Shown here: piece after piece, positions 6,471 through 56,172 of the stretch
How the letters are laid out: each line of letters starts with the position of its first letter
Position numbering within the stretch: position 1 is the first letter of the stretch
DNA from: Eledone cirrhosa
Taxonomy: Eukaryota
NCBI GenBank assembly: GCA_964016885.1
Contig: OZ024745.1
Span: 39,246,001-39,310,000 of the forward strand
Direction of reading: 5' to 3'
Length of the DNA stretch: 64,000 nt
Notes under the pieces: generated by a model
Database searches by the model: none
The model's input: the letters and a program-made list of their open reading frames with translations, nothing else
Told to the model about the DNA's origin: nothing
Translations under genes and position numbers: made by a program

Positions 6471-7233
6471 AGTATAGTAGAATACCTTATTTGCTGACCT
6501 GTCGTGGGATTGCAAGCGTTGGTAAGTTCTAGAAGGAAGACCTATTTCCAAACAAATATTAGTAACACTCATTCTTGGTTCGCATGTCATCTTTGATTTC
6601 TTGACCTAGGGGTCCTCCTGCCACCGGGCACAAAATCAAGCCATTTGCTCTCATCATTTAACCTCAGAAGAATAAACTGTCTAACTGGGTAAGCGCCAGT
6701 CATTTTGAAAATCCTCAGTTTGCACAGGGAATTCTCTGAATTTGGTGCAATTGTATCCGTACACGTGACCCTGTCTGCATTATTGCCAACGCTGCGTAAT
6801 TTAACTTGTAGGCTATATATATATACATTTAGCAGAAGCCAAACGGAAATCCCCACGTTGGTGTTGTGCTTCCAGTCATTGGAAAGAAACAAATAACAAC
6901 AAAAGTAGCAATCCAAAAAGAATCGCCAGATTTCATCTATGAATGGGAAACCTTCAGTACGAATATTCTAGAATATACAATCGGGGCTGCATACGGGGCG
7001 TGTGCGGTTAACATTTAAAATGTTTGTCACAAGTAAATGTAATAAATCATATGGATATTAAACACAGACACGTGCCGTGATAGATAAAAAAAGGTATATA
7101 TCTTGAACAAAAATATAACTTAACACATAAAGTAATAAAAACTACGATAGTTAACTTGATTAAATATAATGTAGCATTTGCAATATGTTTATTATTATAC
7201 GTAGTAATATTATTATTATTATTATTGTTATTG

Positions 7234-7367
7234 TTCTTTGAGTCGCTGTCATTGGTGTTATTTAACTGGAAAGTCTGTTGAAATGAATATCATGCCACTA
7301 CCAGCAGCCTCAGGCATTCAGGACGTATAGGAGGGTTCTTGATGTTCCAAGCAAGCATGCCTTTTGA
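7234..7367 (-). mobile_element. R4/Dong family A, 3'-terminal fragment
   Basis: Highly similar to the 3' ends at 10567-10700 and 36795-36926; flanked by (ATT)n. Confidence 0.85.
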
Positions 7368-7380
7368 ATTATAATTATTA

Positions 7381-9360
7381 TCTGGTTACTGGAAGCTGAA
7401 CGCGTCTTTCCCGCCGCTCAAAGCCTACAGAGACCGGATTAGCGTATTAGTTAAGCAGGCGTTGACGGGAGCGGGCGTCAACAACAGGTGGTGGTTCGCC
7501 CTGAAAAGGGCAATTAAAGTAGAGTCGATTAGGTTTAGCAAAGGAGTAGTGATAGAGGAAAATAGAGTAGAGAGAGAGCTAGTCAGAAAGCTAGATGAGG
7601 CGTTTAGGACAGGCATCGCAACCGACGTGCTTGCGGCGAGATTGGCACTCGACCAATTCTTCAACGCAAAACACGAAGGCTGTGTTGTCAGAGCTAGAGC
7701 AGCCCTTCTCTGAAACACGAGGGGACAAAAGCCGTCCAATGGGCCCGGGTGGCCGAGGCGCGACGTGGCAACAAAGCCACAATTCGGTCTTTGTCTGACC
7801 AAAACGGGTGCGTGATGCTCGAACCTGAGCCGATGTGTGAAGCTTTCCAGAGCACTTTGCTGAACTGTTCGGGAGCGTCTGCGGCCCGGATCGGGGCATG
7901 GATTTCAGTGCATACCTCGACGGACTGCCTCGGCTCTCGACGACCGCAGCACATTGTTGCGAAGAGTCAATAAAAGCCGGTGAAATATGGGAAGCGATGG
8001 CTAACTGCACAAGGGGTAAATTGCCAGGTTTAGATGGTCTGCCCTACGAGCTTTATGCATTTATGCCAGACTTGTTCGGTGACCTCTTGGCAGACGTCTA
8101 CTGCAACTGGCAGCAGAACGGGAGCATTCCCAGTTTTGTGAGCCGGGGAGCAGTGGGGCTGCTGAGAAAAGACCCGAACAAGGGGGTTGTTATCGATAAT
8201 TTCATGTCCATAACTCTGCTAACCACAGAGTTCAAGATTTTGGCCAAGGTGTTAGCAACGAGGTTGGCGCTTGTCATCAAGCGTCTGATGGGAGAGGCGC
8301 AGAAATGCGCCATTCCGGACAGATCCATACACGACAACCTCCACCTTATGCGATACTTCATAGAGAGGGTGGTTAAGGAACCTGGCAAGGGTGGGGCCCT
8401 GATCAACTTGGATCAATCCAAAGCATTCGAGAGAGTCGACCATCAGTACCTGGCGGTAGTCCTCGAGGCAGCTGGTTTCCGGCCCGTTTTCAGGGGTTGG
8501 ATCGCAGCAATGTACAGCGACATATGCTCAGTTGTGAGGGTGAACGGTCACCTGTCGCAGCCATTCTGCAGCATGCGCTCAGTCCGCCAGGGTTTTCCTA
8601 TCTCGTCCCTCTTGTACGTATTGGCTCTCGAGCCGTTATTGCACAAACTGTGGGCGATGAGCTGCGTCCCACGCGAACTAGGATGCGTGAAATCCGAGTA
8701 GGCTTACGCTTGTGGAGCTATGTCGAACAGTTGCTGTCGCGTGTGGGTCTGATCCGGTTGTCGACTGAGTCCATTGTGCATATGGTCTCGTCGTCTTCCT
8801 TCGATGAGGAAGGGCTGGCGGTTTTCATCTGCCTGGTGGCCATGGCGAAAGAGATTGTATTAAAAGGATTAAAGACAGACACTTTCCCTCTTCGGTAAAT
8901 CCCTAATTAACTTTTTCAAGTTTCACTTGAAGAGGAAAATCAGGGCGGAGAGGCAAGTGCTGCTTTCTAGCAAGTCTGTTGAAAGGTGGGTGAATGTAGC
9001 GAGAATGGTCCGAGTGAACGGGACTACTCTGAATATACGTCTGTAGTTTGAGTGATGGAAAAATTGAGAGAGGGCGCTTGCCCTGGTGGTCAGGGTGGCC
9101 GTGGTGTTTTGTGTGGTTTTCGCCACGAGTAACCCTCGGAGGTTTCCCCCCTATTGGGGAATTTTTCATTGTTTCAATTTTCATTTTTATTGTTTTTATA
9201 TATATATATGTTTCTATGTCCTATTTTCTTTTCTTATATAAATAATAAAAATATCTACACTTACCAAACCCACATCGCACAGTTCTCTACCGTCCTGTAC
9301 CGTCCTGTGCCCTCTATAATGTTTTTCGTTATGTCAGCCCTTGTGGCCAATAAAGAAATC
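7381..9360 (+). mobile_element. L1/Tx1 LINE, (ATT)n-associated, 5'-truncated with an internal deletion of about 1 kb near 8700
   Basis: Starts at GYWKLN; RT blocks (ITLLTTEFKILAK, LDQSKAFERVDH, SVRQGFPIS); jumps before YADD to LWSYVEQLL; ends GCCCTTGTGGCCAATAAAGAAATC then (ATT)n. Confidence 0.92.
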
Positions 9361-9386
9361 ATTATTATTATTATTATTATTATTAT

Positions 9387-10521
9387 AACAGTTGCATTTA
9401 TCTTCCTTTATGTTCATACGAGTTATCACCAAGTCACAACCAGTGACCTCAAGAGACAACAAGGTCCGCCACGTTCAAGAAAGAACATACATACTCACAC
9501 ATGCATCTTTAGTGTTTAGACTTGTGATGTACTTATATTGACAGAATCTTCCTTAGTATATGGGCAGTTCCCATTAGTACTATCTTTTGTATTTCTCCTA
9601 TACGCGGGTTTCCTGGGATTTGCGATAAGTAATCATTAGACCCCTTAGGTATCATTCCCAGAGTGCCTACAACCACTGGTATTGTTTTAGTTCTCAATTT
9701 CAACATTTTTCCAATTTCTATCTCCAGGTCCTTATACTTGCTCAATTTTTCAAATGTTTTCATAGATACATTCTTGTCTATTGGAACGGATATATCAATT
9801 AGCAGGCATACCCTCATTTTAAAGTCCTTCAATATTATATCAGCTCTATTTGCATCTATTTTTCGGTCTGTTTGGATGCTAAAGTTCCACAAGATTGAGA
9901 TGTGATCTTTTTCAAGTATGGGAGGTGGTTGATGCTCCCACCAATTCTGTTGATGGGGCAGGTCAAAATACTTACACTTTATCCAATGTATGTATTGTGC
10001 AGCTCTGTCATTCCTGTTTAGGTATTCGGTTGGAGCTATAGGACTGCACATTGAAATTATATGGTCAATGGTCTCTGGTTGTATTTTGCATACACGGAAT
10101 AACGGAATAAGACTTTATATCCATGTTTTGTTTCATTGAGCATTTTACTTAATGGTATGAGTACGATGCAGAATAAAAGCGGTGATAAAGAGTCACCCTG
10201 AAAAATTCCACAATTAATAATAACATCTCCATCTTCCAGTGATTTTGTTTCACTATTCAAAAGGAGTGACGTTTTCCATGTCTTCATACTGAATGACAAA
10301 AACCTCCTGACAACGGGGGATATTTTGAAAATCTCTAAACATTTTTCAATCCAACTGTGTGGCAAACTATCGAATGTTTTTTTATAATCTATCCAAGCAA
10401 TCGATAGATTTTTATGTCTATTATGACAATCTTCCAGTATCATTTTGTTAACCAAAAGCTGATCCTTACAGCCATATGAGCCTCGTTTACACCCTTTCTG
10501 CTCAATGGGAAATAGGTCATT
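9387..10521 (-). mobile_element. R4/Dong family B non-LTR element (RT fragment plus RLE endonuclease), internally deleted
   Basis: ORF 10057-10587 has EQKGC, WIDYKKTFDSLPHSWI, GIFQGDSLSPLLF; ORF 9533-10051 has the RHD-like RND, NRADI..D, KLSKYKDL, GTAHILRKIL of the restriction-like endonuclease; (ATT)n on both sides. Confidence 0.9.
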
Positions 10522-10532
10522 TATTATTATTA

Positions 10533-10566
<34 letters not shown>

Positions 10567-10567
<1 letters not shown>

Positions 10568-12209
10568 GTTCTTTGAGTCTCAGTCATTGATGTTATTTAA
10601 CTGGAAAGTTTGGTGAAATGAATATCAAGCCACTACCTGCAGCCCCAGATATTCAGGACGTATCGGAGGGTTCTTGCTGTTTCCAGCAAGCATGCCTTTT
10701 GAGGTGTTCCAAAAAAGCGGGACGGGACCAATTTTCTTTAACCATACTTGGAAACTCTTGAGATAGTACCTAGTGCGCCTATGACAATCGGGACCACTAT
10801 GACCTCATGGCAGTTCCAAATCCTTTTTACCTCCCACTTTAAGTCCTGGTATCGGTTAATTTTCTCCCTCTCCTTCTCTTGCACTCTCGTGTCGAATGGG
10901 CAGGCCACATCCACAATCAGGCACGATCTTTTTCCCTTGTCCAAAACGACCAGGTCAGGTCTATTGTGTTCCAGTTTCTTGTCCACATGTATCCTAAAAT
11001 CCCACAGCACCCTCACCTGATCGTTTTCCATCACCGACTCTGGCTTATGCTCTTACCACTTCTCAGAATGTGGTAAATTGTTTACTTTGCATAGGTGCCA
11101 GTGGATCACACTTCCCATCACATCATCTCCCCAGTCGTTATAGTGAGTCTGGGCTAGGTGTTTACACTCGGATACAACGTGAGCCACAATCTCCTCTCTC
11201 TCTCTCCACAGATCCTACATACTGGGCTAGCCTCCTCCTTGTAAATATGGTGTTTCAGCCATTTCGTTTTGTGGGCCTGCTCTTGCGCAGCCATTAGCAT
11301 TCGTTCTGTAGCCTTTTTAAGGTCTCCTCTCTTCAACTAGGTCCGTGTCTGTGGATATCTAAATTCAGTTTTCTCAAAGAAGGCACTATGAAGGGATGTT
11401 CATGATGGTTGCTCTTTCTCCATGTTGTTATTTCCTCCTTGGACATCCCCTCGTCTATTGTCCTTTCCTTCAGTACAATTCTGAGCATTGGCTCCATACT
11501 ATCAGTCACGTATTTGTGTAGGTTGTTTTTCTCCATCTGAACACAGTCCTCTATGCTGATAAGATCTCTTCCACCTTCAGATATCCTTAAGTAGAGCCTA
11601 TCGACATCACTCCATTTGTGGAACGTGTTGTAATATAGTCAACAGCTTCCTAGTCTTCCTATCCATTTCTTTTTGTTCAGCAACATTCCATCTCAGAATT
11701 CCCGCACTGTACCTAATAATAGACACACCTCGGGAATTTACTGCACTCCTGGCATCCCTACTGTTCAGATGTGACTTTAATACGCACCTTACTCTCCGAA
11801 TGTATTCAGATCTTATCAATTCCTTCATTTTTGTTCTTGATGTCATCAGCCTCCAGAACACTTAAATAAATATATCGCTCTTCAGTATCAATTTATTTTA
11901 TCATCTCATATGTTGGTACCTGGATTCCGTTGCTTCTGCTCAATTTACCCCTCTTCATCACAAGGATTCCACACTTACTAATACCAAATTGCATACATAT
12001 ATCATTGTTGAAAATACGGACAGTGTCAACAAGCACATTCAACTATTTCTCACTCTTCACGACGAGCTTAAGATCGTCGCAGTATAATGGTAAGGGGGAT
12101 CAGGGCAAGGACAAACTACAGAGGGGACAAAGTATCTCCCTGGAAGATACCTCTCTTGATCCTCACGCCTTCCAAGGTTTCTCCGCCCGATGTTATCTCT
12201 GTTTTCCAT
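10567..12209 (-). mobile_element. R4/Dong family A, 5'-truncated, frameshifted
   Basis: Fragments CRICGERE zinc finger, HNRPDLVVLD, DVACPFD, KINRYQDL; (ATT)n on both sides. Confidence 0.92.
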
Positions 12210-12448
12210 GATTATTAGTATTATTATTATTATTGGCGAACTACGTAGGAAATCGTATTATCGTGAAATCCGCAAAGGTTTGTTGTTTTCAGTTGTTTCA
12301 AATTGCCAGTTATGGAAATCTTTTGTTGTTAAGTGTTTATAAGTTCACATATATGGCTTTCTGAAAGGGACACTCAAAAAGATTGGGGCCTTGAGCCCCA
12401 AATTTAAACTTTTATAATTATCAAACAAAAACTTTCTTTGAAAAAATC

Positions 12449-14380
12449 ATGGGCGGCTCTCAGCCACACAAATATGAAAGCCTTCCTCACAAACTAACAC
12501 CTCACACTAATACGTCCATTGTAAATATTACTACGGTTGCCAACACTAAAAATATAAGCAGTGGTAATAATATAAATTTGTCACATACAGACATTCATTC
12601 CCGGCCATTACCAATAACTGCAGGTGTTAAAGACGCCACCACCACAGTGACAACGGAAACAAAAAAAAAATTATTATCTCGTGACATCGAAATGGATTCA
12701 CTTAGAATCGACTATTCCACGCCGAAAACCACTGACACCACCACCACCACCACCACCACCACCACAACTGAAACTAAAAATAATAACAAAACTAACAATA
12801 ATAACGACAGCATCAACAACAACAACAATGAGAATAACAACAACAGCAACACAAACGCAAAACAAAATGTGCCGTTTGCCAAAACAGCCAAGAAAAGCGA
12901 AATAATCGAGGTAAGCCAGGATGAATTAAATGAAGCCAAGCGAATGGTAAACAAAGATGTGTACAGGGTCACCCCCTCCCACAATCTAATAAAATGGAGC
13001 GTAGGCGCGTATGCACCGTGTCATATCGGGCGATACACACAAAATCACGCCGAACGGGCATCCGAGTCCCAGATACAAAAGCTTTGGGACATGTGTGGGC
13101 AAAACAAAACCCATATCAGACGTGGGCAGAAACATGGACCCGTGGACGTGTTCTTTGGAACCCCACAGGAAGCCAGAGAACACTCCATGGCCCCATTAAG
13201 AAGTGACGAATTCACACTCGTCCCAAGCTATTGTGGTCAGAGACTCGTGAAGATCAGGGTGACCAACGTTTCGTGGGCCATCGAAATTCCCTGGATAATG
13301 GCTGCCATCCTCGCGGCCATCGAGGCCAACACGAACATAATTGAGCTAACAATAGAAAAGCAGGAGAACAGGTCCGGATTTGGAATGGAGCTCCTGATCT
13401 AAGCGGACCAAAGAAACATTGAGGAAATTCCAGAAGTGATAGACCTCAATGACGGCAGCCACCTCACCATAATCGTTGAGGGTAAAAGGCCTAGCTGTGT
13501 CGTTTGTGGCGGAGGAACCCACCTAAAGGTTTTCTGCCATCAGGCTAAAAGGTTGAGGCCACCTCTCCTACTCACCCAAGTGACACAACCATCAACACCA
13601 CCAGCAGCAGAAATGGCAGCAACAACAGAAGGAAATGTAGCAGCAACAACCCCAGCAACAGTAGCAAATCCAACACCACCACCACCACCGCGCCAGAATT
13701 AGCACCAGCGCCTCCACCATCCACCATGCTACAACCAAAACCAAACCCTGCGCATGATTTTCCACTCCCGACCTATCCCAACTGCAGAGAGATTGTGACG
13801 ATGAGGTGGAGTGGCAAATGGAATCAGGAAAAAAAGAAAAAGAAAAAAAGAACCCCGAAAAGAAAAAAATCCTCTTCCTTCGCCCTCCAAAAACAAACTG
13901 CAGGGGGAAACAAATAAGCAAACAGAAAATTTAAGACAGCTATGCCACCACCCACCCCAGCATCACCAGCCCCATCACCACAAACACCAACACCATCACC
14001 ATCATTGACCCCACAACCACCATCACCAACACGACAAAAATCACCAAAAAGCGAAACAGAAACAAACCCACAACCAACTAAAACAAAACAAAACGACCTA
14101 AACGATACACACTACACAGCATTAAATGTGAACAACAACCAATTATTACACTACACCCAAAACAACACCAGTACCACAGAAAAAGACTACACAACACCCC
14201 AAACATTCACACCACCTCCACACATAGAAATCACTCGCATCACACAGAAAACGTACACGACACTAAAACAAAAATTACCCAAGGATATCGAAGACTTCCG
14301 ACAAACAGTCTCCAGGAGGATTTATAAGGACATCCTTCCGGAGGAGGCCACAAGCATTGAAAAGAATGGAGAAACCTGCG
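12449..14380 (+). pseudogene. Tx1 ORF1 (CCHC zinc-knuckle nucleic-acid-binding protein), disrupted
   Basis: ORFs 12449-13402, 13436-13702 and 13942-14430 are collinear with ORF1 of the element at 52866-54620. Confidence 0.85.
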
Positions 14381-17300
14381 CGTGGCCTGGGGTCGTCATG
14401 GAAGCAGGGCCAGCTGCTCAGCGACCTTAGGTCACTAAACATAGATGTGGTAGCCATCAGCGAGACAAGAATCTCCGAAGCACGGGCCTTCGCACCGATC
14501 TTCGGCGGCTACGATGTGTACGCATCTCCCAGCCATCCTGGACTGGGTGGAGGAGTTGCTGTACTTTTTCGGAGAGGTTTGGCTCTCGCCCTAGTGGCCA
14601 TCATCCTGGACCTAGAAGGTAAGTTGGTGGTGCTGCACGTGAACAGCGGAGACGGGAAAGCTTTCAGGCAAGTGGCCGTCTATGCGCCAACAGGAGCAGG
14701 GCTGCCTGATTTCTTCCAGCCTCTGGAAACGTTTCTTGGAACGTCCCGCTCTTTAGTGTCAGTGGGTGCCTGGAACGGTATCTTAGATGCACGCTGGGAC
14801 TGTGTGGGATTAGCGGATAAGGGAGGAGGGTGTAAAAGCCTTTCAAACCTGCTCAGAAGGTTTCAACTGTCTGACATGTACCGTCTGGATTTCCCGAATG
14901 TGCCAATGTGGACATCAACAAATCGCATCAGGTCATCCAGATCATATATAGATAGAGTATTTTGTAGCGAAATAGATAGGACTAACATAGGCTGTCCACA
15001 TTTCAAAATAGTCAACTACACAGACGACAATTTTGTGATCTGTGAGGTGGACTTAGATAGGCTTCATAGACAGCGACCAGGCTACTAGAAGCTAAACACG
15101 TCATTAACAGCGCGCAAGGCCTACATAGACCCGATTAGCGAACTAGTTAAGCGGGCATTGGCGGGGGCCATCGTCAACAAGAATGGTGGTTTGCTCTGAA
15201 AAGAGCGATTAGAATAGAGTCCATTAGGTTTAGTAAGGCTTTAGCAATAGAGAAAAATAGAGCAGAGGGAGAATTAGTTAGAAAATTAGACGAGGCGCTT
15301 AGTAAAGGCATCGCGACCGACGTACTTGCGGCGAAATTGGCCCTTGAACAATTCTTCAATGCAAAGCACGAAGGCTGCGTTGTAAGAGCTAGGGTACGTG
15401 CAATCAGACACGAGGGTCAGAAGCCGTTCAATGGGCCCGAGTGGCAGAGGCGCGTCGTTGCAACAAAGCCACGATCCGGTCTTTGGTGGACTAGGACGCG
15501 CGCATGCTACACTATCCCGGGAAAATGTGTGAAGCTTTTAAGCAACACTTTGCCCAGCTGTTCGGGGGCAGCGGCGCACCGGATCGAGGGATGTATATTA
15601 GTGCATACCTCGACGGACTACCGCGGCTCTAGCCGACTGAGGCGGAGTGTTGCAAAAAGCCGAAAACAGCCGCTGAAGAATGGGAGGCAATGGCTGGCTG
15701 CACAAGGGGTAAATCGCCTGGTTTGGATGGTCTGCCCTATGAAATTTATGTACAGATACCAGACTTGTCGGAGGCCTCTTGGCGGACTTCTACTGCAACT
15801 GGCAACAGACCGGGAGAGTTACCAGCTCTGTGAGCCGATGAGTGTTGGTGCTGTTGAGAAAGGGTCGGAACAAGGGGGATAACATAGATAGGTTTAGGCA
15901 CATAACTCTTCTAAACACAGAGTTCAAGATTTCAGCCAAGGTTCTAGCAAAGAGGTTGGGGCTTTTCGTTGGTGGTCTCGTGGGAGAGGCGCAGACATGC
16001 GCCATTCCAAACAGATCCATCCACGAATAATCTCCACCTCATGCGATACATCGTGGAGAGGGTAGCTAGGTAACCTAGCACAGGTGGGTCCTTGATCAAT
16101 TTAGATCAGTCGAAAGTTTTCAATAAGGTCGACCATCGTTATCTGGCGGTAGTGTGAGGCGGCAGGGTTTCGGCCCGTCCTCAGATCAGAGGCTGGATCG
16201 CTACCATGCACAGCGACATCTGCTTTGTTGTGAGAGTGAACAGTCACCTTTCGGAACCGTTCAACATCATGCGCTCGGTCCGCCAAGGAAGTCCACTCTC
16301 GTCCCTCTTGTACGTATTGACTCTTGAGCCATTACTGCACTAATTGGAGACGTTGAGGCGGTCCTGCGCGAACTAGAATGCGGAAGATCCGTGTCAGCAT
16401 ATGCGGACGATGTCACTGTAGTGGTGTCGAACGCCAAACACATCGAGGCGATCGGCACTACACTAAGAGAATACGAAGCGGTGACAGGAGCAATGATCAA
16501 CCAGGAAAAATCGGTGGACCTGCAGCTCAGCACCTGGAGAGGCAGGTCCATGCCGTCCATCAGCGTCGTCGGGCGCTGGTCGGACGTACCTATTAAATTT
16601 CTAGGGGTCTGGTTCGGTCCGGACCTCCAGACGGACAAAAACTGGGAGGGGGTGACGAGTAGGGTGGGTTCGCTCACCTTCAAATGGGCAGAGAGGAAGC
16701 TGAAAGGTCGAGCGGAGGTGGCGAATGCGTACATCGCGTCCGTCATCTACTACCCCCTGCCCGTCGTGCCTTGTCCTAAGCCTCGTCTGCCTGCGTTGGA
16801 GCGTTTCATCCTTCCCTTTTTGTGTAAGGGACACGCTCCGATGGGTAGGGGGTCCATCTGATGTCAACACCCGCTACGTGGAGGGCTGGGCAAGCCGTGG
16901 CTGATGATGCGCAGACACGCGCTCAGGATACGACATCTCCACCATTTCCTCGACGGTGATCAGCTCTAGTCGCCGTTTGCTAGACGCGTCTTTTCCAAGC
17001 TCGTCTCCTTGACGGAGCTGCAGTCCTGGGTCAAGCGAAGACCGAGAGGGAACGCTTGGAGACTGAAATGTCTTCAGGCGCTCACGGCCCTCGACCAGTC
17101 GGGCAATGTGATCGGTGGAAACTCCACCTTGGCGTTCTATAGAGGATTAGTGGAGGGGAAGTGCGACGATGTACTTGGGGAAACTCTAGGCGTCGACGAA
17201 AATCAACTATCGAATCTCTTCGGAAGAACTTTCGGGCCTGGGTCTATGGACAATTTCCAGAAATCCCTGGCCTGACAGTGCTACCGAGGAGCTTTGCCAG

Positions 17301-17723
17301 TTCGGGATAAACACTGCAGGCATGGAGGTGCCGTCAGCCGGCCATGTCCGAGATGCGCGTAGGGAGAAGAAACCGTCCAGTGTCCGTGCATTGCTGACTT
17401 GTGGGTTTATGTCGAAAACCTGCTACCTGCTATCAGCTGAGGCCATCGTGAGGATTGCCCCGCCCTCTTCCTTTAGCCGGGAAGGGCAGGCAGTTTTTTA
17501 TCTGTCTGGTGGCCAATGCAAAAGAGATAGTATGGTAGACGCGTCTGAAAAGGCTGAAGACGGCACATACCTCTTCGGTGATGCCCTGATTAACTTTTTC
17601 AAATTTTATTTGAAAAGGAAAATCGGGGTAGAGAGGGAACTGTTCTCTTCCCGGCATTTTGTTGAAAGATGGGTGAGAGAGGCAAGAATGGCCCGAGTGA
17701 ATGAGTATATGCCTGTAAACTGA
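14380..17723 (+). pseudogene. Tx1 ORF2 (APE endonuclease-reverse transcriptase), disrupted
   Basis: Six or more ORF fragments collinear with the intact 1145-aa ORF2 at 49363-52800. Confidence 0.92.
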
Positions 17724-17953
17724 AGGTGGTCTGGTGTGAGAGGCGCTAACGTGGCTTTTTTAATGGGCTTTCTCCACGATAGCCTATTGCGTAATTTTTC
17801 ATTGTCTTTTTTTGTTACATCCTCTGTTTTTTGTTTCTTTTAAACGCAGAAATGCCCATTTGCGCCTCCTGTATTATCCTGCACTGTCCTTCATGTCTAC
17901 TTTGTTTAAACCCTTGTGGTTAATAAAGAAAGTATTATCATTATTGTTATTAC

Positions 17954-19373
17954 TCTTTGAGTCTCAGTCATTGATGTTAGTTAACTGGAAAGTTTGTTGA
18001 AATGAATAACAAGCCACTACCTGCAGCCTCATATTCAGGACGTATCGGAGGGTTCTCAGAATGTGGTAAATTGTTTACTTTGCATAGGTACCAGTGGATC
18101 ACCTTGCCCATCACATCATGTCTCCAGCCCTTATAGTGAGTCTGGGCTAGGTGTTTACACTCGGATACAGTGTGAGCCACAGTCTCCTCTCTCTCTCCAC
18201 AGATCCTGCACAGTGGGCTAGCCTCCTCCTTGTAAATGTCGTGTTTCAACCACTTCGTTTTGAGGGCCTGCTCCTGCGCAGCCATTAACATTCCTTCTGT
18301 AGCGTTTTTAAGGTCTCCTCTTTTCAAGCAGTTCCATGTCTCTGGATCTCTAAATTCAGTTTTCTCAAAGAAGGTACTATGAAGGGATTTTTCTTGAAGG
18401 CTGCTCTTTCTCCTTGATGTTATTTCTTCCTTGGACATGCCCTGGCCTATTGTCCCCTCCTTCAGTACAGTTCTGAGCATTGGCTCCTTACTATCAGTCA
18501 CGTATTTGTGTAGGTTGTTTTTCTCCATCTGAACACAGTCCTCTATGATGATAAGATCTCTTCCACCTTCAGATATCCTTAAGTAGAGTCTATCGACATC
18601 ACTCCTCTTGTGGAACATATTGTAGATAGTCAATAGCTTCCTAGTCTTCCTATCCATTTCTTTTTTTTCAGCAACATTCCATATCAGAATTCCCGCACTG
18701 TACCTAATAATAGACACACCTCGGGAATTTACTGCACTTATGGCATTACTACTGTTCAGATGTGACTTTAATACGCTCCTTACTCTCCGAAGGTATTCAG
18801 TTCTTATCAATTCCTTCATTTTTTTGTACTTCATGTTATCAGCGTCCAGAACGCCCAAATACTTGTATCCTTCCTCAGAGTCAATTTCCTTTATCATCTC
18901 ACCTATTGGTATCTGGATTCCGTTACTTCTGCTCAACTTACCCCTCCTCATCGCAATGACTCCAGACTTACTAATACCAAATTGCATACATATATCACTG
19001 CTGAAAATACGGACAGTGTCAACAAACACATCCAACTCCTTCTCACTCTTCCCGAAGAGCTTAAGATCGTCCATGAAGAGGAGGTGATTGATGGTAAGCC
19101 CTCCCTTTCCCAACCTGTATCCTGCTCTCACTTTTCGCAGTACACTGGTCAGGGGCATCAGGGCAAGGACAAACAACAGAGGGGACAGACTATCTCCCTG
19201 GAAGATACCTCTCTTGATCTTCACGCTTCCCAAGGATTCTCCAGTTGATGTTAACTCTGTTTCCAGGACTTCATACTTTTGCCCAACAACTGTCTGATGT
19301 TATCTGCCACCTTGAAGATCTCCGGGCTTTTGGTGATCCAAGAATGAGGCACCATGTCAAATGCCATTTTTGT
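17954..19373 (-). mobile_element. R4/Dong family A, 5'-truncated, RLE core deleted
   Basis: 418-aa ORF 17977-19233 with GIFQGDSLSP, LFMDDLK, YKYLG, CRICGEREETVAHTVSEC, RHD; lacks about 388 bp relative to the 35119 copy. Confidence 0.95.
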
Positions 19374-19387
19374 ATTATCATTAAAGT

Positions 19388-31569: not shown

Positions 31570-31616
<47 letters not shown>

Positions 31617-31729
31617 TGACTACAACGAATACTACTACTACAGCTGTTGTTGCCACTACTACTACTGCTGCTGCTAATACAACTACTACTACTACTACTA
31701 CTACTACTAATAATAATAATAATAATAAT
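31570..31729. repeat. Compound (ACT)n-(AAT)n microsatellite
   Basis: Seen directly. Confidence 0.95.
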
Positions 31730-35120: not shown

Positions 35121-36926
35121 AAGGCATTTGACATGGTGTCTCATTCTCGGATCGCCAAAAGCCTGGTGATCTTCAAGGTGGCAGATAACGTCAGACAGTT
35201 GTTGGGCAAAAGTATGAGGTCCTGGGAAACAGAGTTGATATCAACTGGAGAATCCTTGGGAAGCGTGAAGATCAAGAGAGGTATCTTCCAGGGAGATAGC
35301 CTGTCCCCTCTGCTGTTTGTCCTTGCCCTGATGCCCCTGACCAGTGTACTGCGAAAAGTGAGAGCAGGATACAGGTTGGGAAATGGAGGGCTTACCATCA
35401 ATTACCTCCTCTTCATGGACGATCTTAAGCTCTTCGGGAAGAGTGAGAAGGAGTTGGATGTGCTTGTTGACACTGTCCGTATTTTCAGCAGTGATATATG
35501 TATGCAGTTTGGTATTAGTAAGTGTGGAGTCATTGTGATGAGGAGGGGTAGGTTGAGCAGAAGTAACGGAATCCAGATACCAACAGGTGAGATGATAAAG
35601 GAAATTGACTCTGAGGAAGGATACAAGTATTTGGGCGTTCTGGAGGCTGATGGCATAAAGAACAAAAAATGAAGGAATTGTTAAGAACTGAATACATTCG
35701 GAGAGTAAGCAGCGTATTGAAGTCACATCTGAACAGCAGAAATGCCATAAGCGCAGTAAATTCCCGAGCTCTGTCTATTATTAGGTATAGTGCGGAAATT
35801 CTGAGATGGAATGTTGCTGAACAAAAAGAAATGGATAGGAAGACTAGGAAGTTATTAACTATCTACAACATGTTTCACAAGAGGAGTGATGTCGATAGAC
35901 TCTACTTAAGGAGATATGAGGGTGGAAGAGGTTTTATCAGCATAGAGGACTGTGTTCAGATGGAGAAAAACAACCTACACAAATACGTGACTGATAGTAA
36001 GGAGCCAATGCTCAGAACTGTACTGAAGGAGGGGACAATAGGCCAGGGGATGTCCAAGGAGGAAATAACATCAAGGAGAAAGAGCAGCCTTCAGGACAAA
36101 TCCCTTCATAGTACCTTCTTTGAGAAAACTGAATTTAGAGATCCACAGACATGGAACTGGTTGAGAACAGAGGAGACCTTAAAAAGGCTACAGAAGGAAT
36201 GTTAATGGCTGCGCAGGAGCAGGCACTCAAAACGAAGTGGCTGAAACACCATATTTACAAGGAGGAGGATAGCCCACTGTGCAGGATATGTGGAGAGAGA
36301 GAGGAGACTGTGGCTCTCATTGTATCCGAGTGTAAACACCTAGCCCAGTCCCACTATAAGGGCTGGATACATGATGTGATGGGCAGGGTGATCCACTGGC
36401 ACCTGTGCAAAGTAAACAATTTACCACATTCTGAGAAATGGTATGAGCATAAGCCAGAGGCGGTGATAGAGAACGATCAGGTGAAGGTGCTGTGAGATTT
36501 TAGGATACAGACGGACAAGAAACTGGAACACAATAGACCTGAGATGGTGGTTGTGGACAAAGAAAAAAGATCGTGTCTGATTGTGGATGTGGCCTGCCCA
36601 TTCGACACGAGAGTGCAAGAGAAGAAGAGGGGGAAAATTAACCGATACCAGGACTTAAAGTGGGAGGTAAAAAGGATTTGGAACTGTCATGAAGTCAAAG
36701 TGATCCCGATTGTCATAGGTGCACTAGGGACTATCTCCAAAAGTTTCCAGGGATGGTTAAAGAAAATCGGCCGCTTCACGCATTTTGGAACGCTTCAAAG
36801 GCATGCTTGCTGGGAACAGCAAGAACCCTCCGATACGTCCTGAATATCTGAGGCTGCAGGTAGTGGCTTGATATTCATTCCAACGGACTTTCCAGTTAAC
36901 TAACATCAATGATTGAGACTCAAGGA
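35119..36926 (+). mobile_element. R4/Dong family A, 5'-truncated (RT, zinc finger, RLE, 3'UTR)
   Basis: ORFs 35133-36843 with KAFDMV, GIFQGDSLSP, FMDD, CRICGEREETV, NRPEM, DVACPFD; a few frameshifts; (AAT)n tail. Confidence 0.95.

Positions 36927-49044: not shown

Positions 49045-49098
<54 letters not shown>
49045..49098. repeat. (TAGA)n flanking the Tx1 3' end
   Basis: Perfect tetranucleotide repeat. Confidence 0.97.
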
Positions 49099-49362
49099 TG
49101 TTTCTTTTATTTGCCACTAGGGCATCAAAAGTGGGACAAGTACAAAGGGGGGAGTTTACACAAAAAGGCGTCCTCAATAAGGAGGAGGCAATAACAAAAT
49201 ATAAAAATAAAATAAGATATAACAAAAAATAAAATTTTTAACAAAATTCTCAATAGAGAGGAGGCGCCTTGGGGGGTCGCACACACCCCCGAAAAAAGTG
49301 TGCAACCCTTCTCCTAAGGAGCACAGAGAAGGGGTGCTCCCTTGGTCTTTCATCTTCCTCAC

Positions 49363-52300
49363 CTATAGTCTGATGTAGAGTGAAGGCCCATTCACACGGG
49401 CCATTCTCGCCACTTTCACCCATCTTTCATAGAAACGGCTGGGGTGCAGCACCTCTCTCTCCATCCTGATCCTTCTTCCGAAATGATATCGGAAGAAACG
49501 GACCAGTTGTTGGCCAGAGAGAAAGGTGGCTGACCTCAGTCCTTTCAGACGCATCCACCATACAACCTCTTTCGCCATGGCTATTACGCACAGAAACACC
49601 GCCTCTGCTTCATCTTTGAAGGGGGGAGGCGGCTTGATCATTACAATAGACTCGGTGGTCAACCGGATCGGTCCCACCCTTGACAGCAGTTGTTCGACAT
49701 AGCCCCACAGATCGGCTACGCCCGAGCAGTGTACCAATGCGTGTGCAACGGTTTCCTCGTCGCACACGCATCTGGGACAGATCTTTTTGGCGGGGTCCCT
49801 ACCCGGGCGCCCGTGTCTGTAGAGCCTTTCTCGAACGGGTAAAGCCACTCGGTAGCACTGCCAGGCCAGGGACTTCTGGAAGTTGTCCATAGGTCCTGGG
49901 CTGAATGTCCTACCGAACAGGCTGGCCAGTTCGTCCTCCTCCATGTCTAGAGCTTCTCCGAGGGCGTCGTCGCACCTGCTGCGTACCAGCCCTCTATAGA
50001 ATGTTGCGGTGGAGTCTCCACTGATAACCGGATCCGCCTGCCAGAGGGCGGTGAGCGCCTGGGCACACTCAGTGTGCCAGGCGCCCAGTTTTCTCGGTCT
50101 TTGCTTGACCCAGGATTGCAGCTCGGTGAGTGAGACGAGTCTGGGAAAGGTTCGTCTCACAAACGAGGCCCACACCGGTTGTCCGGTGAGGAATACGTAG
50201 AGGTGCCGTAGCCTTAATGCGTGTTTACGCATCATTAGCCACGGCATCCCCAGCCCTCCTTTCGAAGGGTGTTGACAGCAGATGTATCTCCTCACCATAG
50301 GAGCCCGCCTCTTCCAAAGGAATTGGAAGAGCGCGCGCTCCATCTTGGTGAGGGTTTCCCTTGGGCAGGGCACTACGGTCAGGCGGTAGTAGATGACGGA
50401 CGCTATGTAGGTGTTCGCCACTTCCGCCCGACCTTTCAGGGATAGTTTGCAACTGGCCCACTTCTGGGTCAGTGCAAACACCCTGTTCGTAACCTCCGCC
50501 CAGTTTTTCTCCACCGGGAGGTCCGGTCCGAACCAGACCCCGAGCAACTTCACCGGGCCCTCCGTCCAGCGTCCGACGACGCTATCGGAGGGCATCGGTC
50601 TGCCCCTCCACGTGCCGAGTTGCAAACCGATCGACTTGTCCCGGTTCAGCTTAGCCCCTGTGAACCTTTCGTACTCCTCCAGTAAGGTGCCGACCGCCTC
50701 GATTTCGGAGGCCGTCGACACCATTACTGTCACGTCATCGGCGTAGGCCGACACCGCTTTCCGCAATCCCGGTTCCAAGGGGATGCCCTGCAACAACTCC
50801 AACTTCCGCAGTAGTGGCTCGAGAGTCAACACATACAGAAGGGAGGAGAGAGGGCACCCTTGTCGGATGGACCGCGCGATTTGGAACGGCTCCGAGAGGT
50901 AGCCGTTCACCTTGACCCTAGAGCAGATGCGGCTGCTGTGCATAGCAGTGATCCAGCCCCTGAAAACGGGTCCGAAGCCTGCCGCCGCTAGCACCGCATC
51001 CAGGTAACCATGGTCGACCCTATCGAACGCCTTAGATTGATCCAAGTTGATCAGAGCCCCACCAAAGCCGGGTTCGTTCCCAACCCTCTCTATGATGTAT
51101 CGCATGAGGTGGAGGTTGTCATGGATGGACCTGGACGGGATAGCGCATGTCTGCGCATCTCCAACCAGGTTGCCCACGACAAGCGCCAACCTCTTTGCTA
51201 GCACCTTGGCCAAAATCTGTAACTCTGTGTTTAGCAGTGTTATGGGCCTGAAGTTACTTATTTCGTCCCCCTTGTTCTCGTCCTTCCTCACTAGCGTGAC
51301 TACGCCCTTGGTCACAGTACAGGGAATTCTCCCGTTCTGTTGCCAGTTGCAGTAGACCGCCTCGAGGAGATCGGGGAACAAGTCCGGCATAGCTAGATAT
51401 AATTCGTAAGGAAGACCATCGAGACCCGGGGATTTGCGTTTGCCGCATTGGCTCAGCACGTCCTCTATCTCAGCGGCCGAAATCGGCTCCTCGCAGGACT
51501 TCGCCTCCCTGTCCGAGAGGCGCGGCAGGCCGTCGAGGTATGGACCGAAGTCCACGTTCCCAACCGGCTCCCCGCCCCTCCCGAACAGTCGGGCAAAGTG
51601 CCTTTGAAAGGCCTCACACATCTGCTTAGGCTCAAGAATCGCCCGTCCATCCAGGTCTCGCAAAGACCGGATGGTGGATTTAGTTCCACTGTTGGCCTCT
51701 GTCACGCGGGCCCAGCTAACAGCTTTGGTCCCCTCGTTCCCTAGAGCACGTATTTTACTTTGGACAACGCAGCCTTCGTGCTTCGCGTCGAAAAACTGGC
51801 TCAAAGCCGTTCTCGACGCTAGCACTCTGGCCACGTCGCCGCTTCTAATTGCCTCTTCTACTCTATCTATTAGCTCCCTTTCCTTCCTATTCCTATCCGC
51901 AGCTAGAACCTTACTAAATTCTATCGAGACTACTCTAATCTCTCTCTTTAGAGATACCCACCACCTGCTGTTGACGATCGCTCCAGTCAACCGTTCCTTA
52001 ACTAACGTACTAATCCGATTCCTGTAGGCTCTACTTGCCGGCAAGGACAAGTTGAGCTTCCAGTAACCGGGGCCCTGTCTATGAGTTCTGTCAAGGTTGA
52101 CCATGCAGGTCACTAATTTGTGGTCTGAATAGCCAACCATGCGCATTTTTGGACAACTTAAAAAGTCCTTATCCTTAATTCTAACTAAGAACCTATCTAG
52201 GTACGACCTAGATGATCCGCTACGATTTGCCCAAGTCCAGGTTGGCGCAGTCGGAAAATCTAGTCGATATCTATCGGCCAGGTCAAATCGACCGATTAAC

Positions 52301-52800
52301 CCTTTGAGGCTATTACACCCCTCTCTATCGGGGCAGGCCCCTACGTAGTCCCAGCGTGCATCTAGGATACCATTCCAGTCCCCCACTAATAGCAAGGAGC
52401 GGGACGTCCCCAGAAAAGTCTCCAGACGATGGAAGAAGTCCGGCCGCATTGACCCGAAAGGGCCGTAGGCGGCTACCAACCTAAACGCTCCGCCTTTACC
52501 ACTGCCAAGGTCCAGAACCACTAGTCGACCCTCCGGGTCCAAATGTACCATCTGTGTTGCGAGACCCAGATGTTTTTGCAGCAGAACGACAACTCCACCC
52601 CCACCTCCGGGCTGACAGAGAGATGCGTGCATCTCAAAGTCATCAAAGGTGGGGGCCAGCTGTCGCACGTTGCTGATCCGGGCCTCGCAAATAACCATCA
52701 CATCTATACGTTGTGACCTGAGGTCATTTAGAAGCATTGCTTGCTTCCAAGTTGAGCCCAGGCCACGCGCATTTAAACAGCCTACTCTTAGCATAGCCAT
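49363..52800 (-). CDS. Tx1 ORF2 protein, 1145 aa: APE endonuclease, reverse transcriptase, C-terminal zinc finger
   Basis: NARGL, ICEAR, VGDWN, SYLDR, YSDH (APE); GYWKLN; FRPITLLN, LDQSKAFDRVDH, IRQGCPLS, AYADD (RT); CPRC..EETVAHALVHC; uninterrupted. Confidence 0.97.
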   Translation of the reverse strand: MAMLRVGCLNARGLGSTWKQAMLLNDLRSQRIDVMVICEARISNVRQLAPTFDDFEMHASLCQPGGGGGVVVLLQKHLGLATQMVHLDPEGRLVVLDLGSGKGGAFRLVAAYGPFGSMRPDFFHRLETFLGTSRSLLLVGDWNGILDARWDYVGACPDREGCNSLKGLIGRFDLADRYRLDFPTAPTWTWANRSGSSRSYLDRFLVRIKDKDFLSCPKMRMVGYSDHKLVTCMVNLDRTHRQGPGYWKLNLSLPASRAYRNRISTLVKERLTGAIVNSRWWVSLKREIRVVSIEFSKVLAADRNRKERELIDRVEEAIRSGDVARVLASRTALSQFFDAKHEGCVVQSKIRALGNEGTKAVSWARVTEANSGTKSTIRSLRDLDGRAILEPKQMCEAFQRHFARLFGRGGEPVGNVDFGPYLDGLPRLSDREAKSCEEPISAAEIEDVLSQCGKRKSPGLDGLPYELYLAMPDLFPDLLEAVYCNWQQNGRIPCTVTKGVVTLVRKDENKGDEISNFRPITLLNTELQILAKVLAKRLALVVGNLVGDAQTCAIPSRSIHDNLHLMRYIIERVGNEPGFGGALINLDQSKAFDRVDHGYLDAVLAAAGFGPVFRGWITAMHSSRICSRVKVNGYLSEPFQIARSIRQGCPLSSLLYVLTLEPLLRKLELLQGIPLEPGLRKAVSAYADDVTVMVSTASEIEAVGTLLEEYERFTGAKLNRDKSIGLQLGTWRGRPMPSDSVVGRWTEGPVKLLGVWFGPDLPVEKNWAEVTNRVFALTQKWASCKLSLKGRAEVANTYIASVIYYRLTVVPCPRETLTKMERALFQFLWKRRAPMVRRYICCQHPSKGGLGMPWLMMRKHALRLRHLYVFLTGQPVWASFVRRTFPRLVSLTELQSWVKQRPRKLGAWHTECAQALTALWQADPVISGDSTATFYRGLVRSRCDDALGEALDMEEDELASLFGRTFSPGPMDNFQKSLAWQCYRVALPVRERLYRHGRPGRDPAKKICPRCVCDEETVAHALVHCSGVADLWGYVEQLLSRVGPIRLTTESIVMIKPPPPFKDEAEAVFLCVIAMAKEVVWWMRLKGLRSATFLSGQQLVRFFRYHFGRRIRMEREVLHPSRFYERWVKVARMARVNGPSLYIRL

Positions 52801-53198
52801 GTTGGTGGTGAAGAGAAAAGGCGCTTACCTCTCTGCGTCCCGGGTATCGGGCTGCACAATTTCCATTAGGGTGGGGGATGGGTTGTTGGTGGGGTGGTGG
52901 TTTGTGGAAGTGTGGGGGCATCAGTGTGTTGTGTGGTTGGGGAGCTTGGGGTTGTATGGGTGTTTGGGGAGGGGGTGGGATAGTTTTTTAGGAGGACGCG
53001 GTTAATGGGCCCGACGCAGGGGGGACCCACGTCCTCTTTAAAATTGTTTTTTAAAGTTTTATAGGTGTCCTGTGGAGCCTTAATCATTTTGAGGTGGGGG
53101 AAATCCCCTGCCTGGGTGAAGTTAGGCCCTTGTGTTTTTATTAGATTGTTGTTGTACACAATGTTTAACAGTTTTTTGTTTCTTGTATTTATGTATGT

Positions 53199-54620
53199 CT
53201 ATGCATGTTTTTGTTTTTGTGTGGTGTTTTTTGTTTGCTGTTGTGAGCTCTTTTGTGTTGGTGTCAGTGTTATGTCTTGGGGAGGGTTTTTTTTCATTTG
53301 TGTGTCTGAGGTGTGTTTTCTTTTTTTTCTTTTGATTGTGTGGAAGTGCTCCTCCTCGTCTGACGACGAACTAGGGTCATCTTCCGCGTTGGAAGGGAGG
53401 GGTATATTTTCGGGTTGTGTTTGCGGTACGGGTGTTTTGGAAATTGTTTTTGTTTTTTGAGTGGAGGGGATGGGTTGGACATTGTTTTGTTTTGGTTTGA
53501 GCTGTGGTGGTTGTTTTTGTAGTGGTAGTTGTGGTGATTGTGTTGGTTGTGCAGTTGTTGGTGGTGTAGGCAGGATTGCGGTTTTCTTATTAAGTTGGGG
53601 ACAGACAGCCCTCAGGTGACCTCTGGTTCCGCAGAGGTAACACGGGGGCCGTCTACCCTCAACGGTAATGTTGATGAAGGTTAGATCATCCAGTATGACG
53701 CGTTCAGGGATCTGGGCGATCCTTTCGGGCCTCATTTGAACTACAAGTTCGAGGCTCGTTCCACTGAACGCGTCACCCGATGCCTTTCCCATGGACACCA
53801 GCATGTCATCCTCCAGGTCCAGAAAACCTGTCAAAACCCACCATATGTCCATAATCGGCAGGATGGTGTGGATTTTTATTTTTTGTGTTCTTCTACCCAT
53901 GTACGTAGGGTAGAAGGTGTATGCGGTGGATGTGATTGGTTTGATGGACAGTTTCACTGCTGTGTCCCTGTCCTTCATGAGAATGGATAGACTCCCGTAG
54001 AGTCTATCCTTCTGAATGAAGGTGATGTCCTTCATGACGTCTTTTAAAACCAGCTCTATCTCGCTCTGTGATGGTTGAGCTGGTTTTTTACTTTTGTTCG
54101 AGATTGTCCTAAACATGACCGTGTTTAGGAGTCTCTGGCTTTTTAGTTCCGGGGGGGAATGGATTGTGAATGAACCATTTTCCCCGTACACTATATATTT
54201 TTTCGCATCCGCCAGTAGCTCCTTCGCTTTTGTTATATCTACTGGCAGATAGTCGAGGGTTTTCCTTGTCGTCTCGGCGAAGGAGAAATTTTGTTTGTTT
54301 GTGTTGTTGTTGTCGTTGGTGGTGTTGTTGTTATCATTGTTGTTGTTGTCACCGTTATTGGTCTTGTTGTTGTTGTTGTTGTTATTGTTATTGTTATTGG
54401 TGTTGTTTTCGTCCGTCGCATTGTTGTTGTTGTTGCTGTTGCTGCTGATTCTTTGGGTCGTTGCCATGGCAACGTCAAGTTGTCGGTTAACAGGTGGAGA
54501 GAATTCTTCCTCTGGCTGACCTTTCTTCTTGACCTCTGCTACTGTGACAGTGGCAGGGGGAAGCTGTAAGTTCATCTTCCCCTTTCCTCCTTCGAATTTT
54601 GGTGAAGAAGCTTCGGCCAT
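53199..54620 (-). CDS. Tx1 ORF1 protein (473 aa to TAG; same frame continues to 52866, giving 584 aa)
   Basis: Poly-N N-terminal region, CYLCGTRGHLRAVC CCHC knuckle, basic KRKKRK; collinear with ATT-family ORF1. Confidence 0.9.
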   Translation of the reverse strand: MAEASSPKFEGGKGKMNLQLPPATVTVAEVKKKGQPEEEFSPPVNRQLDVAMATTQRISSNSNNNNNATDENNTNNNNNNNNNNNKTNNGDNNNNDNNNTTNDNNNTNKQNFSFAETTRKTLDYLPVDITKAKELLADAKKYIVYGENGSFTIHSPPELKSQRLLNTVMFRTISNKSKKPAQPSQSEIELVLKDVMKDITFIQKDRLYGSLSILMKDRDTAVKLSIKPITSTAYTFYPTYMGRRTQKIKIHTILPIMDIWWVLTGFLDLEDDMLVSMGKASGDAFSGTSLELVVQMRPERIAQIPERVILDDLTFINITVEGRRPPCYLCGTRGHLRAVCPQLNKKTAILPTPPTTAQPTQSPQLPLQKQPPQLKPKQNNVQPIPSTQKTKTISKTPVPQTQPENIPLPSNAEDDPSSSSDEEEHFHTIKRKKRKHTSDTQMKKNPPQDITLTPTQKSSQQQTKNTTQKQKHA

Positions 54621-54838
54621 TTAAAAAATATTGACTTTTCAACAAGAAAAAACTTTTTTTTTTTTTGTTTAACTATTTCGCCTAAAGGCGTAGAATATTT
54701 TGAGAGACTGACCAGATCAAAGTTTGACCTGGCAGTCCCTCTACAAAATGGTACAAAAATTAAAGTTATCAGACAAGAATTTCTATAGAAATTTAAACAG
54801 AACTTACTCAGCAAGTTATACGCGTGTGTCCATCCCAG

Positions 54839-54839
<1 letters not shown>

Positions 54840-54919
<80 letters not shown>
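54840..54919. repeat. (GATA)n flanking the Tx1 5' end
   Basis: Perfect tetranucleotide repeat. Confidence 0.97.
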
Positions 54920-54952
54920 TACACGGGTGTGTATGATTGTGTATAGAATATT

Positions 54953-55236
54953 ATATTAATAAAAGGAATTCCAACTTTGTCTGATTTATTCGTTTTATTT
55001 ACAATCAGGTTCATATTGTGTGGTGACAGTCAAGTTTGCAATGTTCAACTGTTGACATTTGCAAACTTGACTGTCACCATACAATATGAACCTGAAGATT
55101 GCGAAAGCATGAAAGTACTTGTTCAATTAACAGTTAACATTAATATTCTACCATACTATTTCATTCTAATAGCATTATAAATTTTAAAGGATTGTAAATA
55201 AAACGAGTAAATCAGACAAAGTTGGAATTCCTTATA

Positions 55237-55243
<7 letters not shown>
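54953..55243. mobile_element. Fold-back Penelope-type terminal-repeat element
   Basis: Left arm 54953-55048 is the reverse complement of the right arm 55050-55243 minus an internal segment of about 95 bp; right arm carries a hammerhead motif; abuts (TA)n. Confidence 0.75.
55087..55125 (+). ncRNA. Minimal type I hammerhead ribozyme motif
   Basis: TGAAC-CTGAAGA-T-TGC-GAAA-GCA-T-GAA-AGTACT-T-GTTCA; 5-bp stem I, GNRA-capped stem II, palindromic AGTACT stem III. Confidence 0.78.
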
Positions 55244-55276
<33 letters not shown>

Positions 55277-55279
55277 CAC

Positions 55280-56172
55280 ATCAAATCCTCTGCCTCCTTC
55301 ACTGTATTTGTCACCAAAACTATGTCATCGGCAAATTCAGCATCCGATATCTTTTTCGCCTTAAAACTCCTGCTCTGAGCCTGTGCTTCAGTAAATCCAG
55401 AGTCGTAGGTTTTTCTCCAGTACAAGGCGCATACAATAGTTCACTACGATGACAACAAGGTAAGGAGCCAATGTAGGTTGAGACTGCGTCGATGAGTGTG
55501 ATGCTGAGAATGAATGAGACTAAAACAAAATATCTGGTAGAGAATGTTGAGTAGCCTGAGGGGATCACTAATGTAGGCGGGAAGTCGCTTCAATTAGATG
55601 AGGACTTCCTGTATTTGGGAGCAAAGATTGGGAATACGGAAGATGATGTGAGTGAGAGGAAGAGCAAAGACTGGGCGGCCTGCCACAGCTTGAGATCAGT
55701 GTGGAAGTCAGAACTTTGTAAAGAACTAAAAATCCGCCTCTTCATTGCTGTGGTGGAGTCTGTGCTGCTGTACGGGTCTGAGACTTGGACACTGACCAAG
55801 AAACTCACTCAGATGGTGGATGAGTGCTACACGAGAATGCTGAGTATACCTCTGAACTTTAATCAGTATACATTGAGGATGAAAAACTCAGAAATGTATG
55901 GGAGCCTCCCAAAGGTCAGCTCAAAAGTGACACGGAGGAGACTGAGGTTAGCTGGACATGCTCACTGACATCCAGAGTTGACATTGCACTCAGTGCACCT
56001 GTGGGAGCCCCTACATGGACACACTGGAAGGGGAATACCAACGTTAAAGTATGTTGATGCCTAAGGACATACACAGGTCTGTTGGAGAAACAGGACATGA
56101 CACCGATAATGAGGGACAGACACCTCTGGAGAGAACTCGTCCATGGATCTCGGGAATTTTACCCGCCCTAGG
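55280..56172 (+). mobile_element. RTE-type LINE, 5'-truncated with inverted 5' segment
   Basis: Plus part ESVLLYGSETWTLTK..RRLRLAGH; inverted part (about 55280-55430) EFADDIVLV..EAEDL; TSD ATACATACAC at 55270-55279 and 56173-56182. Confidence 0.9.

Follow-up and report, generated by a model that had tools for sequence, protein, structure and literature searches.

A full-length L1/Tx1-type LINE between GATA microsatellite arrays in Eledone cirrhosa and its relatives in ATT repeats

A 64,000-nucleotide stretch of the Eledone cirrhosa genome (assembly GCA_964016885.1, contig OZ024745.1, forward-strand positions 39,246,001 to 39,310,000; hereafter the window) carries a full-length L1/Tx1-type long interspersed nuclear element (LINE), here called element G, that is bordered on both sides by perfect GATA repeats. 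We read it as a recent full-length insertion that probably belongs to a family targeting pre-existing (GATA)n by target-primed reverse transcription (TPRT), within an octopod lineage in which the other members likely target (ATT)n. Targeting of microsatellites at the level of the lineage is well supported by the junctions of four elements in the window, and its target has likely shifted between GATA and ATT in the course of time. A sequence-only reading of the window had suggested that the element may be GATA-specific; microsatellite targeting at the level of the lineage has stronger support than that single copy could give, with all eight junctions in agreement, and strict GATA specificity is represented by one copy.

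Element G, its relatives and their repeat junctions

Element G and its flanking arrays are placed as follows:

49099..54838, minus strand: element G, full-length L1/Tx1-type LINE of 5,740 bp; its 3' boundary follows from homology with relatives A, B and C, its 5' boundary solely from where the repeat array stops
54840..54919, minus strand: (TATC)20 in element sense, directly 5' of element G; base 54839 also fits the repeat
49047..49098, minus strand: (TATC)13 in element sense, directly 3' of element G, then a short (TA)n

On the forward strand the arrays read as perfect (GATA)13 at 49047-49098 and (GATA)20 at 54840-54919. The sequence-only reading had placed both ends directly on perfect (TATC)n, which is borne out with 20 units upstream and 13 downstream; its span of 49045..54919 did contain an element but took in both arrays, the body being 49099-54838. 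It had also reported the absence of poly(A), and this holds as well: in element sense the 3' end runs AATAAA-AGAAACA, (TATC)13, (TA)n, with AATAAA at 49111-49106 and the element ending 7 bases beyond it. No target-site duplication was found outside the repeat at element G. The two flanking arrays are the only runs of at least three perfect GATA units in the 64-kb window (checked with Tandem Repeats Finder, TRF). The window contains no N and is microsatellite-rich, with 55 TRF rows.

Three relatives of element G lie in the same window:

12235..17932, plus strand: relative A, full-length, degenerate, (ATT)n at both ends; ORF2 55.5% identical to that of G
7382..9360, plus strand: relative B, 5'-truncated near ORF2 codon 245 and internally deleted, flanked on either side by ATT-type repeat; identity to G 63.5% over 551 aa
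31730..35067, minus strand: relative C, retaining its two termini, each in (ATT)n, and lacking a large part of ORF2; endonuclease 57.4% identical to that of G

Nucleotide identity of A, B and C to G is 66-72%, and the endonucleases of the ATT-associated relatives are 55-57% identical to that of G. The 3' ends of all four elements align through AATAAA(A)GAAA and then part, into (TATC)n in G and (ATT)n in A, B and C, so the lineage has no fixed unit built into its tail. All eight junctions (four elements, one window) adjoin the repeat unit of their own element, in a single orientation: each junction 12-mer has 0-1 mismatch to its own unit and 6-7 mismatches to the other one. The chance background is low, with 0.28% of strand positions within 3 nt of an ATT-type 12-mer and 0.15% within 3 nt of a TATC-type one, arrays included; outside the element G locus, a TATC-type 12-mer starts at 0.019% of positions. 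Even when the 3' repeats are discounted as possible tails, the four 5' junctions, taken as independent, would have a chance probability of ~3e-11, a figure that is overstated because three of the 5' arrays are shared with another LINE end and the 5' boundary of G is itself array-defined. Relative B is the most telling case: it is cut within ORF2 and yet has an ATT-type 12-mer where its 5' end breaks off. A 5' repeat encoded by the element cannot account for this, and on this ground we rejected the idea that the 5' repeat simply belongs to the element itself. A LINE family is regarded as target-specific when more than 20% of its flanks lie in one target type (PMC4494074). Relatives A, B and C exceed this share, with 3/3 copies and 6/6 junctions in ATT in one window, and for the family of G the share is 1/1 copy with readable flanks in GATA, a single copy standing behind it. 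The array behind relative C (31571-31729) is compound, passing from a few ATT units into a long (AGT)n.

The ATT arrays also hold four copies, 88-94% alike, of another, unrelated LINE, which we take from its motifs, rather than from a tree, to be R4/Dong-like:

7233-7367, minus strand: R4/Dong-like copy
10571-12210, minus strand: R4/Dong-like copy
17953-19384, minus strand: R4/Dong-like copy
35123-36925, plus strand: R4/Dong-like copy

The best solved-structure matches of this LINE are R2 proteins. All four copies have (AAT)n at both ends in their own sense, truncated 5' ends included, and they share arrays with A, B and C in the opposite orientation. Two unrelated LINE clades are stacked in one microsatellite from opposite strands, and the arrays thus behave as shared landing sites. 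The copies at 19384 and 35123 start at nearly the same internal point, which may reflect a truncated master copy or a local duplication.

Beyond the upstream GATA array of element G, at a distance of 32 bases, lies a 293-bp element resembling a miniature inverted-repeat transposable element (54952-55244); its terminal inverted repeats are 55 nt long (96%) and enclose a 45-nt hairpin. Fragments of another LINE reverse transcriptase follow at 55555-55968 (plus) and ~55290-55400 (minus), on opposite strands beside a (TA)n run; judged by their motifs, they are presumably RTE-like.

Coding capacity and condition of the copy

Between its untranslated regions (UTRs), element G contains two open reading frames (ORFs), the second with an apurinic/apyrimidinic endonuclease (APE) domain and a reverse transcriptase (RT) domain:

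54621..54838, minus strand: 5' UTR, from the sequence
53199..54620, minus strand: ORF1, ended after 473 aa by a copy-specific stop; contains an Asn-rich stretch, and a single CCHC knuckle at aa 326-342
52866..53198, minus strand: ORF1 frame continued behind the premature stop, 110 codons, found by tblastn to the relatives' ORF1
49363..52800, minus strand: ORF2, 1,145 aa from ATG, uninterrupted; APE endonuclease, RT and C-terminal Cys/His motif
52090..52800, minus strand: APE endonuclease domain, ORF2 aa 1-237, from alignment with human L1 ORF2p, model and fold search
50536..51267, minus strand: RT domain, ORF2 aa 512-755, YADD at aa 686, from Pfam and alignment
49099..49362, minus strand: 3' UTR without poly(A), by homology with relatives A, B and C

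The earlier description of ORF2 as uninterrupted is correct, the frame being open from its ATG throughout. Pfam matches to Exo_endo_phos (E 5.9e-8) and RVT_1 (E 1.1e-25) are both above their cut-offs and zf-RVT falls below its own; the C-terminal motif, CPRC...H...C, is at aa 1008-1025. In the alignment with human L1 ORF2p all APE catalytic residues are kept (N10, E39, Y112, D141, N143, D202, D226 and H227). A structure model of aa 1-237 built from a 92-row alignment reached a pLDDT of 96.2, and its closest folds are human L1 endonuclease structures (TM 0.84-0.85). The endonuclease, which the sequence-only reading had suggested may be functional, looks so from its residues and its predicted fold. 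A model of the entire ORF2 (pLDDT 53) and the folding of the 3' UTR (z -2.15, centroid mostly open) were not used as evidence.

ORF1 gave a zf-CCHC match (E 0.027) below the Pfam cut-off and no RRM match in Pfam; ORF1 proteins of the Tx1 clade carry zf-CCHC/RRM-type domains (PMC5203782). The ORF1 frame of element G stops at codon 474, a position at which 98% of the depth in sequencing run X1 codes for an amino acid. Past the stop, tblastn matches the frame to the terminal parts of ORF1 in A (E 2.7e-7) and C (E 3.4e-5), as homologous sequence. A copy-specific stop with homologous frame behind it means that this copy is not wholly intact. At four ORF2 residues (347, 762, 839 and 985), too, at least 99.9% of X1 depth disagrees with this copy, and two of these residues fall in columns that hardly vary; they were found among 17 positions picked from 40 of 966 rows. 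The possibility that element G is wholly intact was rejected on the ORF1 stop and these four deviant residues together.

Public sequencing runs were matched to element G with repeats masked, contigs of four of them being aligned along it; none of these contigs extends past its ends, so the junctions of other copies are out of view. The runs contain at most 72% of the sampled 31-mers of element G, which corresponds to ~1% divergence if substitutions are the cause. In run X6, the eight contig pieces listed show 18 differences over ~3,130 letters, and one piece in run X5 shows 12 over 1,554; the earlier statement that the element is young agrees with both counts. Pieces 99-100% identical to G occur in runs X5, X6 and X7, which bear three other organism labels, at a depth of only 2-14; contamination, prey or host DNA, or a close species are all possible sources.

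Run X1 gave 26,674 records that match element G at a likeness of at least 85%. Its summed depth, which is not a copy number, is ~9,000-14,000 in most 5' bins, as against 320,000-760,000 over most of the 3' half, and this slope is what a large, mostly 5'-truncated family gives. Element G is young yet already drifting, and the family, rather than this copy, is likely the active unit.

Relatives, classification and known systems

The nearest named proteins to element G are from Argonauta hians (63%, 61% and 58% identity), followed by groups at ~40% and ~27%. We built a FastTree phylogeny of 29 rows, omitting relative C, which has no RT, and including no labelled Tx1 reference row. Eight close rows form one clade (100), in which G and an Argonauta hians fragment (SH-like 97) stand beside a group of A, B and another Argonauta protein (98). 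A branch of G apart from that of A and B would fit two old families with different targets.

Element G is likely a member of the Tx1 clade; among the protein matches listed, none bears the name of Tx1L, Keno, Dewa, Kibi or Koshi. Its ORF2 has the domain order of the L1 group, an N-terminal APE endonuclease, RT and a C-terminal Cys/His motif. Its RT is closer to that of human L1 ORF2p (E 1e-46, aa 8-857) than to R2 proteins (E 1e-19 or weaker), as judged among the 10 solved sequences matched, which were L1 and R2 proteins only.

A scan of genome contigs returned no near relative of G. The scan gave 42 loci, 39 of which are relatives at 40-43% identity, all in one record, CAXXMW01 (L081-L120). 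This record is labelled as an uncultured Arenicella metagenome-assembled genome and contains Tx1-like LINEs of 6.5-6.9 kb in head-to-tail arrangement, 40% identical to G; its contigs are likely animal DNA that ended up in a bacterial bin. It comprises several diverged subfamilies with a conserved 3' block in common, and five of its loci gave no Rfam match. In these head-to-tail relatives AATAAA is followed by a few last bases and no poly(A), and none of 37 distinct 3' contexts (39 overlapping loci, one record set) has a microsatellite, the contexts not being independent insertions since the loci overlap. An end without poly(A) is therefore an old trait of the lineage, and the association with microsatellites is one peculiar to its octopod branch. 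We accordingly rejected the idea that the missing poly(A) is special to element G.

More distant matches came from a metagenome scan (42 of 64 parts), in which the 80 loci retained out of 181 confirmed have a best-segment identity of 21-36%. Viral contigs yielded 30 pattern matches, none of which was confirmed. A cluster in Patella caerulea (P0313) consists of eleven near-identical Tx1-like ORF2 proteins, close together on one contig with mostly alternate locus numbers, which suggests another tandem stack.

Among solved proteins, human LINE-1 ORF2p is the best match to G by sequence (E 1e-46) and by endonuclease fold (TM 0.85), and it has the same hairpin length. Human L1 differs in its poly(A) tail and its loosely defined target, TTTT/AA; G lacks poly(A) and is seated in GATA.

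Known targets of the Tx1 clade include TC, TTC, TTCC, TTTC, U2, U5, 5S and transposons (PMC4494074); LINE microsatellite targets include ACAY, AC, TC, TTC and TAA (PMC3812793), and Togen targets TG (PMC4640811). The closest parallels are Kibi in (TC)n and Koshi in (TTC)n, Tx1-clade elements of teleost fish, which like G are APE-type L1-group LINEs in a microsatellite with a T-rich unit (PMC4494074, PMC3812793). Compared by description only, G belongs to neither, its flanks being (TATC)n, those of its relatives (ATT)n, and its host a mollusc; by analogy, it appears to work as they do. A crocodilian Tx1 group (Tx1-1_Crp, Tx1-5_Crp and others) in (TTCC)n/(TTTC)n shares with G a tetranucleotide target and the occurrence of related families with different units. 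Its units, however, are pure pyrimidine and its copies old, whereas TATC and ATT contain A and G lies ~1% from its nearest copies (PMC4494074). Dong, of the R4 clade, is (TAA)n-specific (PMC3812793), the same repeat as in A, B and C, whose arrays the Dong-like copies share. It differs in its restriction-like endonuclease (PMC4640811), its opposite array orientation and a target other than GATA; G encodes an APE domain and is thus outside Dong.

Octopus annotations count 80 L1-Tx1 families, 13 of them recently active with 421 insertions in Octopus vulgaris, and place L1-Tx1 and Dong-R4 among the main active LINEs (PMC13282606). The family of G may be among the octopus L1-Tx1 consensus sequences of that study; the word "target" does not occur in its main text. 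Our search of the literature, which did not cover Repbase and Dfam, found no GATA target, no ATT target for an APE element and no cephalopod case, and no match to the terminal motifs of the element. Element G is not a new kind of system: microsatellite targeting is a known habit, and what we did not find described is a GATA or ATT repeat as the target.

Explanations for the repeat association and what it would mean

Several observations count against GATA targeting. A single GATA-type copy is readable with its flanks. The 5' repeat of relative B is only 14 nt long with one mismatch, and three of the four 5' arrays, being shared with an R4/Dong-like end, are not fully independent. Of 1,940 loose ends in the read data, 24 were listed and none is GATA repeat, a count that is uninformative; three loose ends that we examined are diverged continuations of the element, not junctions. 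The endonuclease hairpin of G, which lies between T189 and S199 and probes the minor groove, has 9 residues, as in the promiscuous human L1, where Tx1L and TRAS1 have 11 (PMC1950540); its length is identical in G, A and C, with tip residues that vary among relatives. The phylogeny is a quick FastTree in which the Argonauta fragment fills 42% of columns and relative B under half. Finally, long arrays occur only at LINE ends (9/9 ATT/AAT arrays of at least 20 nt and both GATA arrays), a restriction that targeting and array-making predict alike and that also fits elements lengthening their own arrays.

One explanation, which we regard as unlikely, is that the lineage is a generalist for ATA-containing microsatellites (ATT, GATA and TA) and that the split between GATA and ATT is an accident of a sample of four. 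GATA and ATT arrays do share an ATA core on the same strand relative to the element, and the equal hairpin length, the (TA)n run adjoining the 3' GATA array and the single GATA copy all point the same way. G nevertheless branches apart from A and B, an Argonauta member being found in either branch, and A, B and C all lie in ATT although TA arrays are far commoner in the window, where none of the four elements sits in TA.

Decidedly doubtful is the proposal that the elements largely made their arrays, a short UAUC tail annealing to a seed of only a few complementary bases at a loose nick and slippage, in the course of insertion or later, lengthening both sides. L2, CR1 and RTE elements carry repeat tails, and such an origin would agree with the lack of poly(A), with long perfect GATA runs found in the window solely at the ends of G, and with the contact of all nine long ATT arrays with a LINE end. 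A tail, however, cannot account for a perfect 20-unit array at the 5' end, the truncated 5' ends of B and of the R4/Dong-like copies also lie within arrays, and the relatives at 40% identity have no repeat tail. That the element landed where it did by accident, in a genome full of repeats, and was then retained, or that identical repeats led the assembly to a false join, could draw on the 55 TRF rows and on the masking that left no read across the junctions, but is highly improbable given eight ends that are base-precise and matched in unit and orientation against a background of 0.15-0.28%, in a window without N.

The reading we prefer remains insertion by TPRT into a GATA array that was already there. 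Reverse transcription in APE LINEs is primed by the 3' end that becomes free when the endonuclease nicks the target. We observed directly how the elements are built, which catalytic residues are intact and that all eight junctions agree in repeat unit and orientation, and from these we infer the steps of the mechanism. The APE domain would nick the purine-rich strand, which reads GATA. The RNA would end a few bases past AATAAA, probably a short way into UAUC units. Base-pairing of these units with the nicked GATA strand could then prime reverse transcription, which would leave no poly(A) to be copied. A second nick within the same array would then hide any target-site duplication in the repeat.

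The way in which APE-type LINEs locate microsatellites is reported to be poorly understood (PMC3812793). The Tx1L endonuclease is by itself highly specific and nicks almost only its own target (PMC1950540). Given the ATA core common to both arrays, the endonuclease of this lineage may read that core and the base next to it, with RNA-DNA pairing sharpening the choice of unit; the unit may be chosen by the protein, by RNA pairing, or not strictly at all. We put forward only tentatively, as a speculative extension, an octopod radiation of closely related APE-type LINEs with one microsatellite per family (GATA, ATT and perhaps others), in which the endonuclease reads only the ATA core and the target is switched mainly by the pairing of a read-through RNA tail of a few bases with the nicked strand. 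If true, this would amount to RNA-steered target choice in an APE LINE and to the first GATA-specific retrotransposon, with a nearly current open ORF2.

A young GATA element and ATT relatives with endonucleases 55-57% identical to its own form a natural pair for swaps of domain, hairpin and RNA tail. With targeting of GATA by this family, molluscs and units that contain A would join the known range of L1/Tx1-type microsatellite targeting, and a common non-coding repeat would gain a candidate for a sequence-directed writer. Such targeting would also help explain why cephalopod microsatellites are entangled with LINE ends.

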